The notes below the pieces were generated by a model. The model had not been told where the DNA came from. It did no database searches and worked only from the letters and a program-made list of their open reading frames with translations. Positions 14,076 through 19,769 of a DNA stretch of 32,000 nt are shown piece after piece. The translations under genes were made by a program, and so were the position numbers. Origin of the DNA: Candidatus Hermodarchaeota archaeon (GTDB lineage: Archaea > Asgardarchaeota > Heimdallarchaeia > Hodarchaeales > Hodarchaeaceae); assembly GCA_048886185.1 (NCBI GenBank), contig JBHLKY010000019.1, positions 1 through 32,000 of the forward strand, in the 5' to 3' direction. Positions within the stretch are counted from its first letter, which is position 1; every line of letters starts with the position of its first letter.

Positions 14076-15260
14076 ATGGGAAAAATTATGACGAAAGAGC
14101 TACTCTCCAGGCTTGAGTTATCATATACACAACGACTCTTGGAGGATATGATTCGCATTAATTCTATTGTAGGTAATGAAGGGGAACTAGCTGAGTATCT
14201 TAAAGATGAATTGGAAACCTTGGGTTTGAAAGGTGATCTAGACCTTGTGGAACCTAGTCGCCCTAATGTCTATGCCCGATTAATTGGTGATAAACCAGGG
14301 AAAAGGCTTAATTTCAATGGTCATATGGATACGGTTCCTGTTGTAGATGGATGGGATACTGATCCCTTTACCCCTGTCATTAAAGACCAGAAATTGTTTG
14401 GTCTTGGTACCTGTGACATGAAGGCAGGCATTGCTTGCATTTTGACTATGTTCCGAGCTTTTATAGAATCTGGATACTCTTTTAATGGAGAGCTTTCTTT
14501 TTCAGGAGTGATTGATGAAGAGGCATATGGCAAAGGAGCTAAGGCGATGCTAAAAACAGATTTCGCTAAAGTTGACGCGATCATTTTAGCTGAACCATAT
14601 CCTGGAGATAAAATCAAACCAATTCCACTTGGAATCACTGGTAAAATTCTCTATAACATCTCTGTAAAAGGAAAAGCTGCTCATGGGTTTCGTCCTCATC
14701 TAGGTATAAACGCAATTGAGGAGTTGGGGAAAATTATTACTAATCTACCTCAACTGAACTTCAAGGATCATCCCGATTTTGGAAGAGGGAACTACTCCAC
14801 TTTGAAAATTGAAGGAGGATATGGAGATGTGTACTCAGTAGTGGTTCCTGCTTCTGCTCGTGTAGAAATAAATCGGTTATTAGTTCCTGGTGAAACAATA
14901 GAAACCGCTATAGAAGATATGAAAAGATTAGTTCAATCACTTGATCTTATCGCTGATGTAGAAATAAGAACAAAACCTCCTCAATATGAAGCTTTCGTGC
15001 TAGATAGAAATGAACCCATTATTCAGATATTTGATTCTGTTTATAGACAGGTAATGGGACGACCAGCTCATTATGAATACACATCGGGGATAACAGACGC
15101 TAATATCTTCGCAGGAGAGGGTGATATTCCCTGTTTACATTTAGGTCCACCCCAAGAAGTAGCTCACCAAAAAAATGAGTATGTGTTGCTAGATGAGTTA
15201 CAACCATTGTCTCAGATGTTCACCCTCATTGCAGCTAGGTTCCTTGAAGATACCTCTTGA
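14076..15260 (+). CDS. M20 family metallo-amidohydrolase (ArgE/DapE-like)
   Basis: Metal ligand motifs NGHMDTV, GTCDMKAG, DEE, AEP, AHQKNE; dimerisation-domain GKAAHG..PHLGINAI. Confidence 0.9.
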   Translation: MGKIMTKELLSRLELSYTQRLLEDMIRINSIVGNEGELAEYLKDELETLGLKGDLDLVEPSRPNVYARLIGDKPGKRLNFNGHMDTVPVVDGWDTDPFTPVIKDQKLFGLGTCDMKAGIACILTMFRAFIESGYSFNGELSFSGVIDEEAYGKGAKAMLKTDFAKVDAIILAEPYPGDKIKPIPLGITGKILYNISVKGKAAHGFRPHLGINAIEELGKIITNLPQLNFKDHPDFGRGNYSTLKIEGGYGDVYSVVVPASARVEINRLLVPGETIETAIEDMKRLVQSLDLIADVEIRTKPPQYEAFVLDRNEPIIQIFDSVYRQVMGRPAHYEYTSGITDANIFAGEGDIPCLHLGPPQEVAHQKNEYVLLDELQPLSQMFTLIAARFLEDTS

Positions 15261-15286: not shown

Positions 15287-16672
15287 ATGGTTACTCCACC
15301 GTGGCGTATAAATGAAGTACTAGAAAGAGCAGAAACGGGTCCTGTGTGTTTGGAAAGAGATTATGACCTTAAGCTGTTGGTGCCTGCACTCAGGAGAGTC
15401 ATCAAGGAATATGACATTTCTTTTGACCCTGCGATACCCGTTCCAGATGATAATACCTTAGCTGATAATCTTTGGAACGCTGCGTTTGATTTATATCTCG
15501 AGGTTGGCAGTTTACACACTGATACTTATAGGAGGATTTTATTTACAGAAGATGAGATAAAGGAAGCTCTAGGCAATTTTCCTGGTAAGTTTACGTTGGG
15601 ATTTGGGCGTGACTCTAGAGAATTATCATTTCGATGTATTGAAGATCAGAAAACACCTTTTTGTATGTTTACACCAGATATAACCTGTGATGAGGATCTT
15701 TTTCTCCCCATGAGTATGGCTTATTTACAAGAACCTCTAGCTGATGGTGTATGTGCTCCCATTCTTGATGAGATTCAGGGGATGCCCATACGCTCTGGAT
15801 ATCCATCTGAAGTTCTTGGAAGTGTTTCTCATGCGATGATGTTTCGTGAGGCTGCCAGACGAGTTGGACGACCAGGTATCTTCCTTAAAAGTGTTGGAAC
15901 AGCAGAGTCGGATGCTGCACAATTTGCTGCTAGCAATCCTGAATGGGGAGAAAGATTAACAGATGGACGTTTTGTAGCAAGTGTAACTGAACTCAAGATA
16001 AATAACTCGCTCATGAACAAGATGGTACATTTTCATACATATGGATGCTTTATTGGGGCTCTCGCGGGACCAATTCTTGGTGGATATGCTGGTGGGCCAG
16101 AAGGGACTGCTGTGGTTGGAGTTGCTTATCATTTAATGGGATTACTTGTAAATCAGGCACACTTTATGGTCTATTTTCCCTTTCATTTGAAACATACCTG
16201 CAATACAACACGAGAGCTTCTCTGGGTGTTATCAACAACCTATCAAGCGTTGTCTCGAAATAGTAATCTTATCTCTATGTCAGCTAGCTATGCTGCTGCT
16301 GGTCCATGTACACCTATGGTTTTAAAAGAAGCTGCTACACACGCATTGGCCTCTGTTGTTTCTGGTTCCAACCTCTGGATAATGGCTGCAGCAAAGAATA
16401 GACATAAAAATTATGCTACTCCTTTGGAAGCACGAATGGCTGGTGAGGTGGGATTGGGAACAATAAAAAATCGATTGGCAAGAAGTGATGTTAATGAGCT
16501 TGTTCTTCCTCTTCTAAAGACCTACGAAGATAATATTGAAAATGCTCCGTTAGGGAAAAGTTTTCGTGAATGTTATGACATAAAGCGGTGTAAACCTAAA
16601 CCAGAATATTTGGATCTTTATCGAACGACTCGAATGGAGCTCGAAGACCTTGGTATCCCATTTATTTACTGA
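15287..16672 (+). CDS. mtmB: Monomethylamine methyltransferase (MtmB) family homologue without pyrrolysine (Lys201)
   Basis: About 460 aa; GRPG..., ELKIN, GGYAGGPE, AGPCT, EAR..GEV, GKSFRECYD...ELEDLGIPF match Methanosarcina MtmB as I recall it; uninterrupted ORF with no in-frame TAG. Confidence 0.88.
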   Translation: MVTPPWRINEVLERAETGPVCLERDYDLKLLVPALRRVIKEYDISFDPAIPVPDDNTLADNLWNAAFDLYLEVGSLHTDTYRRILFTEDEIKEALGNFPGKFTLGFGRDSRELSFRCIEDQKTPFCMFTPDITCDEDLFLPMSMAYLQEPLADGVCAPILDEIQGMPIRSGYPSEVLGSVSHAMMFREAARRVGRPGIFLKSVGTAESDAAQFAASNPEWGERLTDGRFVASVTELKINNSLMNKMVHFHTYGCFIGALAGPILGGYAGGPEGTAVVGVAYHLMGLLVNQAHFMVYFPFHLKHTCNTTRELLWVLSTTYQALSRNSNLISMSASYAAAGPCTPMVLKEAATHALASVVSGSNLWIMAAAKNRHKNYATPLEARMAGEVGLGTIKNRLARSDVNELVLPLLKTYEDNIENAPLGKSFRECYDIKRCKPKPEYLDLYRTTRMELEDLGIPFIY

Positions 16673-16742
16673 TAATAAATGATGAATTACTTGCTCGAAA
16701 ATCGGCACAATATTTAAAATAATGATCAATGGAGCTATTATC

Positions 16743-17282
16743 ATGAAACTTTCGTATGAAGAAATGATTGCTGCACGAATAAGGCGTGATGCTTCATACG
16801 ATGGAAATTTCTATGTGGGGGTACGGACTATGAAAATTTTCTGTCTACCTTCTTGCAAAGCAAGATTGCCTCTTGAGAAAAACATGGTTTTCTTCTCGAC
16901 ACAGGATGAAGCAATTTCTGCAGGATATCGAAGCTGCAAACGATGTAAACCAGATTTATTTCCCAAAAATTCACCTAATTGGTTAGATAAAGTTTTTACT
17001 TACATGAAAAGGAATGTTTCAGAGAAACTTGATGAAAAGACTTTAGTTCGGATAACAGGTGTTGAGATTTCAACTATTAGGCGAAATTTTAAAACCTATT
17101 ATCAGGAAACTCCGCTAGCATTCCACAGGAGACTTCGTTTAATTTATGCTAAAAGATTACTCCAAAAAGGAGTGAGTTCTAAAGAACTCCCATCTCGATG
17201 CGGTTTTAAATCCTATAGTGGTTTTAAAACAGCCTTTTTAAAGGAATTTGGACATACACCTGGAGAAGTTGATAATGTCTGA
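16743..17282 (+). CDS. adaA: AdaA-like protein: Ada Zn-binding methylphosphotriester-repair domain plus AraC-type HTH
   Basis: RDASYDGNFYVGV..IFCLPSC...AGYRSCKRCKPD (Cx3C and Cx2C); C-terminal CGFKSYSGFKTAFLKEFGHTP AraC signature. ATG 16743 preferred over the track start at 16722. Confidence 0.9.
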   Translation: MKLSYEEMIAARIRRDASYDGNFYVGVRTMKIFCLPSCKARLPLEKNMVFFSTQDEAISAGYRSCKRCKPDLFPKNSPNWLDKVFTYMKRNVSEKLDEKTLVRITGVEISTIRRNFKTYYQETPLAFHRRLRLIYAKRLLQKGVSSKELPSRCGFKSYSGFKTAFLKEFGHTPGEVDNV

Positions 17283-17808
17283 TATTAAAATGGTTTATAA
17301 GTATGTGGAAAGCCCTCTAGGCAATCTAATCATTGGTGCAACTTCCCAGGGTTGTTGTCTTTTGGAATTTAAAGATAGATATAGTGAAGCTGAAATCAAC
17401 TCCCATTACAAAAAATGGTACAATGCTGATAGTGTCGAGGGTTCACATCCGACTCTTGATAACCTTGAAAATGAGCTTAGAGATTATTTTGATAGAAAAC
17501 TTCGTAATTTTTCCATTCCACTTGACTTACGAGGTACTGAGTTCGAGATGTTGGTATGGAAGGAACTACTGAAGATTCCTTATGGAGAAACTAGATCTTA
17601 CAATGATATTGCTAAAGCAATAGGTAATGCATCTGCATCCCGGGCTGTTGGTAGAGCAAATGGTAATAATCCAGTTGCGATTGTCGTTCCTTGCCACAGG
17701 GTAATTGCTAGCAATGGAAAATTACATGGTTATGGTGGAGGATTGTGGCGAAAAGAGAAGCTCCTGGCTTTAGAATCTAAAAAGAAGAGTTTAACCGAGT
17801 TTATGTGA
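17275..17808 (+). CDS. ogt: Methylated-DNA--protein-cysteine methyltransferase (Ogt/AdaB)
   Basis: LLKIPYGETRSY, SRAVGRANGNNP, active-site PCHRV, GYGGGLWRKEKLLALE; start overlaps the adaA stop by 8 nt. Confidence 0.93.
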   Translation: MSDIKMVYKYVESPLGNLIIGATSQGCCLLEFKDRYSEAEINSHYKKWYNADSVEGSHPTLDNLENELRDYFDRKLRNFSIPLDLRGTEFEMLVWKELLKIPYGETRSYNDIAKAIGNASASRAVGRANGNNPVAIVVPCHRVIASNGKLHGYGGGLWRKEKLLALESKKKSLTEFM

Positions 17809-17814
17809 ATATTA

Positions 17815-18339
17815 CTACTTTTTTTCTGATTTTGGGATGCCTATCCATCTCGGAGTAGCTTCCATATAGTTTTCATATTCTTTCTTATGTTTTTTCCTTA
17901 AATGTGGTTCTTCTATAAAATATACTACAAAATGAAAAAGAATAAACGATACAATGCTCCAAATGATTATTATAGGAAATTGAAATAGCACCCCTTCTCC
18001 AAGAATGAGAACTACAACTCCCAAATACATCGGATTCCTTGAGTATCGGTATAAACCGATTTTTACAAGTTTATCGGGCTCCAATCCAAAAATTTTCTCT
18101 AATTTTTTCATAAAGAATATCATGGGTGTTCCTTCCCCCGTTATCAAAAAAGAAATGCCCGAATAACAGTAGAAAACGAATCCAATGCTTATCAGCAAAA
18201 TCCCCAATATATGTGTTGCACCTAAATTAATTTTTTGGGGCCATAAAGAACTTAAGAACCATGGGATGAAAATCACTACGGTCCCAGGTATAAAAATGGT
18301 AAAAATACAAGTTTTGATGATAAGATCAAAGCCTTTCAT
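17815..18339 (-). CDS. Isoprenylcysteine carboxyl-methyltransferase / phospholipid methyltransferase (ICMT/PEMT) family membrane protein
   Basis: GLYRYSRNPMYLG, EE..L...Y..Y...TPRW; multiple TM helices. Confidence 0.85.
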   Translation of the reverse strand: MKGFDLIIKTCIFTIFIPGTVVIFIPWFLSSLWPQKINLGATHILGILLISIGFVFYCYSGISFLITGEGTPMIFFMKKLEKIFGLEPDKLVKIGLYRYSRNPMYLGVVVLILGEGVLFQFPIIIIWSIVSFILFHFVVYFIEEPHLRKKHKKEYENYMEATPRWIGIPKSEKK

Positions 18340-18380
18340 GAATCAATGCCTCTAGGGGTTGTTTGAACTTACTTACTAGT

Positions 18381-19769
18381 TTACACTAAATTAATACCCA
18401 GTTCAGCTAATTCATTTTTGACGTGTTCGTAAATAGTTACATATTCTTTAGAAGGTTTTACTGTATCAAGATCATAACATTCCTGAAACTTATGACCAAG
18501 GGGTGGATTGTCTAAATTCTGCTTGTATTTCTTAACAACTTGGATTAAAAGTTCGTTTGCATCGACTCTTTTCATACCTGTGACTGCATGGCCAACTTCA
18601 CACCCTATTCGTGCTTCCATTCCTGTTTCCCGATCAAGGTACTGACTTTTTGCGGCAGAGGCATTGTTGATGTGAATTCCTGAAACTGTACCAACAATTG
18701 AACTGGCTGCAACCTCATATAAGCACATCTCTGTGCACGGCCCAGCAGCTGTTATTGCTTCAGAAGCACTTAGAAGATGTGTATTTCGACTGAGGGCTTG
18801 GCCCACCATCCCAGCACTCCATAGTGATTCCTGTGCGGTACTGCAGGAATATTTGAGATGTGTAATTGGGAAATCGGAATATGCAACATGGTGAACTAAA
18901 AGTCCCTGCAGATGGTGAGCAAGGGTGACAACTGCGGTTCCTTCAGGGCCGCCCCCATATCCCCCCATTAACGGAACATATACTGCTCCAGGCAGAACAT
19001 TTTTCTGTTCGCAATAATATAGTGCTTTTGTAAGCTGACTATAATCCGTCTTCAGTTCTGCTAGGGAGGCGATAAGGTTTCCATCTACAGTCCTGACACC
19101 GAGTTCTGGTTGAGTTGCTGAAATGTATGCAGCGGATGACAATGCGGTTCCTAGTAGATTATGGAATCCAATTCCAGGGCGACCAGCTCTTTTAGCTCCC
19201 TCTTTTGAATAGATGACATTATATTTTGAAGCTAAGACTTCCACAGGAGTACCTGCTTTTGGAACCATCCCAAAGATAGTGTGTAGCGGACAACCTCCAC
19301 TTACAGTATCAGCTAATGGTTCTTGAGCATAACTTTGCACAACTTGAACATATATATCTTCCGATATTTCTCCTCCACCTGAAGTCAAACATAATGGAGG
19401 TGTTCTATGTTCCACTTGCCTGGGTACCATTTCTCGGGCATCTAAGCCTTCTCCAAATGTGACCTTTGTTGGCGCATTTCTTAATGCTTCTTTAATCTCA
19501 GCCTCTTCAAATTTGATTTGGCGGTGTGTACTCAAGCATAGGGTACCTGTTTCTAGGTAAAGATCCATTGCAGCATTGAACAGGGCATCTGCTAAGCTAT
19601 CATCATTAGGTATTAATATATCGGGATCAAATATGATATCATTGTCTTTGATTACCTCTTTAAGCTTTAATCGTAATATTTTCCTATCAAAGTCTTTTTC
19701 TAGGCAAATTGGGCCTGTTTCTGCCTTTTTTAGAACATCAATCATCGTTGGTTCAGACATCGGTCTCAT
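18381..19769 (-). CDS. mtmB: Second MtmB-family homologue without pyrrolysine (His203)
   Basis: AGRPGIGFH, ELKTD, GGYGGGPE, AGPCTEMCLYE, ETGMEAR, GHKFQECYD...ELAELGI; no in-frame TAG. Confidence 0.88.
   Translation of the reverse strand: MRPMSEPTMIDVLKKAETGPICLEKDFDRKILRLKLKEVIKDNDIIFDPDILIPNDDSLADALFNAAMDLYLETGTLCLSTHRQIKFEEAEIKEALRNAPTKVTFGEGLDAREMVPRQVEHRTPPLCLTSGGGEISEDIYVQVVQSYAQEPLADTVSGGCPLHTIFGMVPKAGTPVEVLASKYNVIYSKEGAKRAGRPGIGFHNLLGTALSSAAYISATQPELGVRTVDGNLIASLAELKTDYSQLTKALYYCEQKNVLPGAVYVPLMGGYGGGPEGTAVVTLAHHLQGLLVHHVAYSDFPITHLKYSCSTAQESLWSAGMVGQALSRNTHLLSASEAITAAGPCTEMCLYEVAASSIVGTVSGIHINNASAAKSQYLDRETGMEARIGCEVGHAVTGMKRVDANELLIQVVKKYKQNLDNPPLGHKFQECYDLDTVKPSKEYVTIYEHVKNELAELGINLV

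Follow-up and report, generated by a model that had tools for sequence, protein, structure and literature searches.

The window analysed here, a stretch of 32,000 nucleotides from the genome of a Candidatus Hermodarchaeota archaeon (assembly GCA_048886185.1, contig JBHLKY010000019.1, positions 1 to 32,000), carries two convergent open reading frames (ORFs) whose products, P0001 and P0002, are enzymes of the MtmB methyltransferase family that lack its pyrrolysine (Pyl) and that belong to two distinct subfamilies under purifying selection. At the site of the Pyl residue, P0001 has a lysine and P0002 a histidine, and we refer to them as the K-type and the H-type. We consider it likely that both are functional corrinoid-dependent MT1 (first methyltransferase) enzymes, representing sister Pyl-free K/Q and H subfamilies that share one carrier and act on different, non-methylamine substrates. 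The conserved pair would thus probably feed one vitamin-B12 carrier protein.

Family, fold and the pyrrolysine site

Both proteins match the Pfam MtmB model PF05369 at full length (profile positions 3-450 of 450; P0001, E 6.9e-98 and 328.8 bits; P0002, E 6e-111 and 371.9 bits; cut-off 25), and their matches in the PDB, as found with HMMER, are to Methanosarcina barkeri MtmB only (1L2Q/1NTH/1TV2), with E values of about 1e-71 to 1e-74 (for 1L2Q, 3.7e-71 with P0001 and 5e-74 with P0002). A search of NCBIfam returned no match for either protein. The two are 44% identical to each other, and the database start of P0002 lies 3 codons later than ours, giving 459 residues. Their AlphaFold2 (AF2) models superpose on 1L2Q/1NTH over about 455 columns and match the TIM-barrel fold of the solved MtmB: the model of P0001 (predicted local distance difference test, pLDDT, 94.5) reaches a template modelling (TM) score of 0.95 to 1L2Q with a root-mean-square deviation (rmsd) of 1.4 Å, and that of P0002 (pLDDT 89.4) a TM score of 0.92 with an rmsd of 2.0 Å. 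Against orthologues, the ratio of nonsynonymous to synonymous substitution rates (dN/dS) is 0.05-0.09 for P0001 and about 0.05 for P0002, from which it follows that both genes are under purifying selection. The closest relatives are labelled as Asgard archaea (Hodarchaeales, Heimdallarchaeota, Promethearchaeota).

The initial annotation of this DNA had put a lysine (AAA, K201, in GRPGIFL-K) and a histidine (CAT, H203, in GRPGIGF-H) at the Pyl site of P0001 and P0002, respectively, and both codons are indeed read directly in the sequence (table 1). The homology of the site is observed in two ways: in HMMER alignments to 1L2Q/1NTH, Lys201 and His203 fall on the X that marks Pyl202 of M. barkeri MtmB, and in a joint MAFFT alignment they share a column with the TAG codon of 25 methanogen mtmB genes, a reference set assembled from a DNA pattern including TAG and a scan of Methanosarcinaceae genomes (n=25 with TAG). 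The motif GRPGMGV-O, which the same annotation had given for Methanosarcina MtmB, is correct in both the PDB and the 25-gene alignments. Also borne out were its observations that the H-type is longer by one residue just after the site (HNLL-G vs KSV-G in the K-type) and that there is no in-frame TAG: a UAG codon at the Pyl position is absent from both P0001 and P0002, and neither ORF has an internal stop. In the AF2 models, Lys201 is the last residue of a predicted strand (199-201) and His203 lies within the predicted strand 201-204, that is, on the catalytic face of the TIM barrel.

The residue at the site is conserved among close relatives of each protein. Lysine is present in 57 of 57 Asgard sequences at least 76% identical to P0001; the next group, at 61-67% identity (bacteria such as [Eubacterium] cellulosolvens, and Bathyarchaeia), has glutamine, and relatives beyond this group have V, T, A or C. 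Among the relatives of P0002 down to 45% identity, histidine, followed by asparagine, occupies the site in 85 of 94 and methionine in 8; in alignment A2, His203 does not vary and Asn204 is conserved to at least 90%. At the scale of the family, there are many Pyl-free MtmB homologues: the matches with an E value of up to 0.001 make up 975 clusters at 50% identity. Among 129 full-length sequences representing 50%-identity clusters, the Pyl-site column is hypervariable, with K three times, H four times and otherwise L, G, I, V, C, T, S, A and further residues, so that the Lys versus His difference is one contrast of many.

The surroundings of the site are remodelled too. E229 and E259, invariant in the 25 Pyl enzymes, are replaced by F229 and L259 in the K-type and by L232 and A262 in the H-type (the latter position being Val in most of the clade), and E205, conserved in all Pyl enzymes sampled, is Gly in both types. 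Four further acidic residues invariant in the Pyl enzymes are substituted: E183 (H in the K-type, N in the H-type), E273 (G in both), D278 (G and T, respectively) and D296 (Y and F, respectively). The K-type additionally has F297, W364 and Y376. Residues at the mouth of the barrel are conserved within each subfamily. Hao et al., in 2002, reportedly described E229 and E259 as flanking the Pyl ring of MtmB. Given the loss of both Pyl and E229/E259, monomethylamine is, judging from these residues, an unlikely substrate.

It is worth weighing the name that both proteins carry in NCBI and JGI, "monomethylamine:corrinoid methyltransferase". That they are Pyl-independent monomethylamine methyltransferases seems very unlikely to us, as Pyl is absent and E205, E229 and E259 are replaced, as two diverged paralogues plus a third copy in the same genome would be redundant for one simple substrate, and as such names are family-level annotations rather than the outcome of assays; in its favour, beyond the names, MtqB, a Pyl-free MtmB homologue, also acts weakly on monomethylamine, with a side activity of 11 nmol per min per mg (PMC13044021). 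This enzyme, from Methanococcoides methylutens Q3c, demethylates tetramethylammonium and choline and was in 2026 the first of its kind to be given a function (PMC13044021). As for the suggestion of the initial annotation that the two proteins have "new and different methyl-donor specificities", the fixed residues and the loss of the glutamates make different specificities plausible and methylamine unlikely, which supports the second half of the claim, whereas "new" was overstated: any novelty is only relative because Pyl-free MtmBs have long been known, have been reported in Asgard archaea, and include MtqB, whose function is demonstrated (PMC13044021). No substrate can be assigned from sequence. 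That annotation had also overlooked the conserved pairing of the two genes, their probable corrinoid partner on another contig and the third, K-type copy found there.

Two subfamilies, their pairing and their candidate corrinoid partners

Two trees of Pyl and non-Pyl MtmB sequences were built (FastTree, 218 sequences; IQ-TREE quick mode, 98 sequences). In both, the K clade (support 100) is nested in a grade of Q-type sequences. The resulting K/Q/V/T clade has a support of 100 and the separate H clade one of 91, and the two are sisters with a support of 96 in FastTree and a Shimodaira–Hasegawa-like approximate likelihood ratio test (SH-aLRT) value of 69 in IQ-TREE. With midpoint rooting, the opposite half of the tree holds the Pyl clade (100), together with non-Pyl Methanosarcinaceae genes that include likely MtqB orthologues (L063, L067), and both trees keep these orthologues and the Pyl clade apart from the K/Q and H clades. 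MtqB was placed in the trees through gene order (a corrinoid gene directly upstream), with Ile at the site, and not through an accession. On the Pyl side of the trees, the full-length representative P0132 falls within the Pyl clade and has Ile at the site, which may reflect either that Pyl was lost recently or that the gene was miscalled. Five Methanosarcinaceae genomes (G281, G226, G240, G206, G306) also encode Pyl-free MtmBs (L058-L062; 500-658 bits on the Pfam model) that lie near the Pyl clade and have Met at the site (GREGLALMGPG); a corrinoid gene is directly upstream in none of the five.

The association of the K-type with the H-type extends to other genomes. MtmB genes are found in 16 of the 22 genomes of the genus, and about 10 of these 16 have an H-type gene at most 5 kb away from a K-type gene, among them CP070695 and CP070760, two closed genomes placed in the same genus by a genome search. 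The order of the genes differs between them: CP070695 has, as in the window, an M20 amidohydrolase gene, K, AdaN, Ogt and H; CP070760 has K, an unrelated 346-aa gene and H; in G102, H and K are 734 bp apart; and G136 has a compact trio of H, corrinoid gene and K. In other Asgard genomes, K-type genes follow and H-type genes precede a corrinoid gene, and in an Asgard family that is more remote the K-type and H-type genes stand apart, the latter then being followed by a corrinoid gene of its own.

Outside Asgard archaea, we surveyed 78 metagenome loci retrieved with an H-type profile, along with several identity-based look-ups. At no fewer than 12 metagenome loci, an H-type gene, a corrinoid gene and a Q-type gene form one cluster, with three gene orders being seen, and 7 of these clusters adjoin the histidine-utilisation genes hutH-hutU-hutI-FTCD. 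Other metagenome loci combine three MtmBs (Q, H1, H2) and one corrinoid gene with a Liv-type ATP-binding cassette (ABC) importer, aminotransferases and a histidine-ammonia-lyase-family gene, and many Q-type genes occur alone, in the order AIRS-family gene, corrinoid gene, Q. Two side observations concern these loci. At L081, L082, L085, L094, L096, L099-L101 and L103, hutH, hutU, hutI and FTCD are divergent from the H-type MtmB, corrinoid and Q-type MtmB genes. At L031, L079, L080 and about 10 loci in L109-L138, a gene with AIRS/AIRS_C domains (PurM superfamily) and a corrinoid gene regularly precede the Q-type MtmB gene; the AIRS-type protein, which uses ATP, might assist the corrinoid system, e.g., as an activase.

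Turning to the genome itself (4.84 Mb, 96% complete), neither PylS, nor PylD, nor a credible CUA tRNA-Pyl was found in it, the best matches being of 26 bits to the C-terminal model of PylS (cut-off 178) and 23.5 bits to PylD (cut-off 150); PylB and PylC were not searched. Three "tRNA-Pyl(CUA)" calls made by ARAGORN in intron mode were rejected: Rfam and the sequences themselves identify two as tRNA-Lys(CUU) and tRNA-Gln(CUG), each carrying a canonical 37/38 intron, while no tRNA match exists for the third. Similar miscalls may lie behind reports of a "remnant tRNA-Pyl" in Asgard genomes. Across 201 sampled Asgard genomes, none of the 43 MtmB matches contains an in-frame TAG, and Heimdall-type Asgard archaea have been reported to lack Pyl (PMC9723677).

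Besides P0001 and P0002, the genome encodes one more MtmB, P0003, on contig 2, a K-type protein 83% identical to P0001 with the same GRPGIFLK motif. Its gene directly follows those of a 220-aa B12-binding_2/B12-binding protein and of a MocA-type oxidoreductase, and the corrinoid gene is one of two MtmC-like corrinoid genes in the genome, the other being on contig 7. A single 612-aa protein of the RamA/RACo activase type, with RACo linker, middle and C-terminal domains, is encoded on contig 23. Candidates for the second methyltransferase (MT2) comprise four stand-alone UroD-family genes, one pterin-binding gene and a homocysteine S-methyltransferase on contig 7; the pterin-binding gene was set aside, as it adjoins cofE and looks biosynthetic.

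The surroundings of the two corrinoid genes may be noted in passing. On contig 2, P0003 is followed by a 331-aa protein with a weak DUF6144 match, a metallo-beta-lactamase (MBL)-fold protein and an S-adenosylmethionine (SAM) methyltransferase, and the stretch of this cluster that begins with the corrinoid gene and ends with the SAM methyltransferase gene, minus the MBL-fold gene, recurs in G062 (L010). The operon on contig 7 includes a Pyl-free MttB (PF06253, 480 aa, no stop), the only such gene of the genome, and resembles a methionine-synthase-like system in split form, which could transfer methyl groups from a quaternary amine to a thiol such as homocysteine.

Table 1. Positions of the features discussed; positions without a contig or locus prefix are those of the window
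Feature	Position	Strand	Remarks
M20 (ArgE/DapE-family) amidohydrolase	14076..15260	+	PF01546/PF07687; TIGR01910 just above cut-off
K-type Pyl-free MtmB-family methyltransferase P0001, 461 aa	15287..16672	+	PF05369, 1L2Q match, AF2 model, dN/dS
Lys201 codon AAA, homologous to Pyl202	15887..15889	+	codon read; aligned to Pyl
Ada Zn-binding and AraC helix-turn-helix (HTH) gene	16722-17282	+	split Ada, first part
Ogt-type methyltransferase ORF	17248-17808	+	overlaps Ada/AraC gene by 35 nt
PEMT/ICMT-family membrane methyltransferase	17815-18339	-	41 bp downstream of H-type gene, same strand
H-type Pyl-free MtmB-family methyltransferase P0002, 462 aa	18381..19769	-	PF05369, 1L2Q match, AF2 model, dN/dS
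His203 codon CAT, homologous to Pyl202, then conserved Asn204	19161..19163	-	codon read; aligned to Pyl
MtmC-like corrinoid gene beside P0003	C2:73656-73994; corrinoid protein encoded at L004:9615-10277, minus strand
MtmC-like corrinoid gene of contig 7	C7:129505-129846
Contig 2 cluster	L004:5521-11520	-	MocA-type oxidoreductase, corrinoid protein, P0003, 331-aa protein, MBL-fold protein, SAM methyltransferase
Contig 7 operon	L005:5925-11664	-	MocA-type oxidoreductase, MtmC-like corrinoid protein, homocysteine S-methyltransferase (PF02574), Pyl-free MttB, Ldh_2-family dehydrogenase
Intron-containing tRNA-Lys(CUU)	G000 C11:98585-98688		miscalled tRNA-Pyl(CUA)
Intron-containing tRNA-Gln(CUG)	G000 C14:26674-26782		miscalled tRNA-Pyl(CUA)

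Proposed mechanism, substrates and competing readings

By analogy with MtmB and MtqB, the methylated donor would be bound at the C-terminal mouth of the TIM barrel of each enzyme, and its methyl group would be presented to the Co(I) of an MtmC-like corrinoid protein. This carrier may be the corrinoid protein next to P0003 on contig 2, which the RamA/RACo-type activase would keep reduced, and the methyl-corrinoid would then be unloaded by some MT2. Lys201 and His203 (with Asn204) could act as subfamily-specific residues for substrate binding or acid–base chemistry, filling the space taken by pyrrolysine in MtmB. The donor, presumably not monomethylamine, would most likely differ between the two enzymes, either as different related substrates or as successive demethylation states of one amino-acid-type N-methylated compound. 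A stepwise demethylation of an N-methylated amino acid would fit the arrangement of several MT1 paralogues around one carrier gene beside amino-acid importers and histidine catabolism. In Eubacterium limosum, the corrinoid protein MtqC is reportedly shared by several MT1 paralogues of the MttB superfamily.

The neighbouring genes of the window have a bearing on this question. The M20 gene lies 26 bp upstream of the K-type gene, an arrangement repeated in CP070695 (L007, 82% identity) and absent at the other orthologous loci examined. The amidohydrolase is a possible accessory of the K-type enzyme, and, judging from this context, it would fit the release of an N-methylated compound from a peptide or acyl conjugate; as a constant partner it was rejected, being seen only in the window and in CP070695. 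A bolder proposal can be built on these elements, in which the K/Q and H enzymes and one corrinoid protein would form a conserved anaerobic module that strips successive N-methyl groups off a methylated amino acid. The best guess for the latter would be a methylated histidine (hercynine, N-alpha-methylhistidines, or a methylhistidine freed from a dipeptide by the M20 enzyme) that would then enter the Hut pathway, with one methylation state per paralogue, as for MttB, MtbB and MtmB but without Pyl, and with His203 and Lys201 replacing the activating role of pyrrolysine. We regard this extended proposal as unlikely in its entirety, and our literature search found no paper that ties hercynine to corrinoid demethylation.

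The only characterised Pyl-free MtmB being MtqB, which demethylates tetramethylammonium and choline (PMC13044021), one may ask whether P0001 and P0002 are likewise methyltransferases of quaternary amines, acting on these two compounds or on a similar small one. The aromatic or neutral residues that the K-type has at acidic positions of the Pyl enzymes (F229, Y296, F297, W364, Y376) would suit the cation–pi binding of a quaternary ammonium. However, the likely MtqB orthologues, Methanosarcinaceae genes directly after a corrinoid gene, fall in the other half of the tree, are about 30% identical to the window proteins and have Ile at the site, and the neighbours of the K/Q and H relatives are Liv-type importers and histidine-utilisation genes rather than choline or betaine transporters. 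On these grounds, we hold an MtqB-like function to be rather improbable.

The genes lying between the pair invite yet another interpretation, namely that the locus is a "methyl-stress" island in which an Ada-type regulator and Ogt accompany enzymes that detoxify or use methylating agents, e.g., methyl halides. A gene with Ada N-terminal and AraC-type domains and an ogt gene do separate the MtmB genes in both the window and CP070695, and a Pyl-free MtmB-superfamily protein is the most induced one in dichloromethane-grown "Ca. Formimonas warabiya" (PMC9768040). Yet the Ada/AraC and ogt genes are not found at this place in other genomes of the genus, where the interval is filled by the 346-aa gene of CP070760, by the corrinoid gene of G136, or by nothing more than the 734 bp of G102; the PEMT/ICMT-like gene, not found at the orthologous loci examined, is confined to the window; and the known methyl-halide MT1s, CmuA and CdmB, belong to other families (PMC13222342). 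The Ada/Ogt genes and the PEMT-like gene were hence rejected as functional partners, not being conserved between orthologous pairs, and, given that the genes between the pair vary, they are probably passengers; the methyl-stress interpretation appears highly improbable to us.

A last alternative, to which we give equally little credence, is that one or both proteins are non-catalytic, acting as a scaffold or sensor or as one subunit of a hetero-oligomer that also contains the other paralogue. It would account for the lack of a corrinoid gene next to either mtmB gene in the window, and, the pairing being conserved, mixed oligomers of the paralogues are conceivable; M. barkeri MtmB itself is said to be oligomeric. 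Against it speak the full-length purifying selection, the conservation of barrel-mouth residues within each subfamily, and the presence elsewhere of orthologues of each type directly beside corrinoid genes, as expected of working MT1 enzymes.

Several observations weigh against our preferred reading of the pair as MT1 enzymes that share one carrier and act on different substrates. The window itself holds no corrinoid protein, MT2 or transporter gene, and no MT2 is linked to any of the K/H loci examined. Among the sequencing runs listed as containing the window sequence, there is no RNA run, only DNA from sediment and estuary metagenomes. That the K/Q and H clades are sisters is only moderately supported in the better of the two trees (SH-aLRT 69), and many Q-type genes have no H-type neighbour, which indicates that the partnership is not obligatory. 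The argument from E229 and E259 relies on the role beside the Pyl ring that Hao et al. (2002) reportedly described for them, with E205 also placed around the ring. The linkage to hut and Liv genes comes from non-Asgard contigs of a few related studies rather than from Asgard loci, and, the contigs being mutually related, the counts are not independent. Finally, all 22 genomes of this genus have urocanase, with or without MtmB; it was thus dropped as a correlate of MtmB presence, and, being in every genome, it neither supports nor refutes a link to histidine.

Relation to known systems and implications

P0001 and P0002 are additional members of two uncharacterised subfamilies and do not amount to a new kind of system. 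With MtmB1 of M. barkeri (PDB 1L2Q, 1NTH, 1TV2-4), they share the Pfam family (32-33% identity at full length), a near-identical predicted fold, the GRPG motif before the site and, in the case of relatives, linkage to an MtmC-like corrinoid protein. They differ from it in having Lys201 or His203 in the place of Pyl and in the replacement of E205, E229, E259 and other invariant acidic residues; in addition, their host is not a methanogen and no Pyl machinery was found in it, within the scope given above, and no mtmC stands beside the window genes. With MtqB/MtqC, the likeness is that of a Pyl-free MT1 of the MtmB family with a dedicated corrinoid protein and a non-methylamine substrate (PMC13044021), whereas MtqB belongs to another clade, on the Pyl-containing side of the tree, is about 30% identical, with Ile at the site in its likely representatives, and comes from a methanogen in which the methyl group goes to coenzyme M via MtbA (PMC13044021); the gene neighbourhoods differ as well.

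The Pyl-free members of the MttB superfamily offer a third point of comparison, since they too lack Pyl, are related to a methylamine methyltransferase that has it, and demethylate N-methylated compounds of larger size: glycine betaine for MtgB, carnitine for MtcB, proline betaine for MtpB and gamma-butyrobetaine for MtyB. They belong, however, to PF06253 and COG5598 and are a distant structural match to the models of the window proteins (TM score about 0.5).

Only one Pyl-free MtmB has a known substrate (PMC13044021), and the module of K/Q-type enzyme, H-type enzyme and carrier, together with its neighbourhoods, gives a concrete and assayable shortlist of substrates. Lys, Gln and His-Asn at the Pyl site are, moreover, natural "replacements" with which the contribution of pyrrolysine could be probed. 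More broadly, that the two sister subfamilies occur together around one corrinoid gene, from Asgard archaea to other sediment lineages, suggests that in anoxic sediments non-methanogenic archaea near the eukaryotic stem use N-methylated organic nitrogen compounds as a source of methyl groups.

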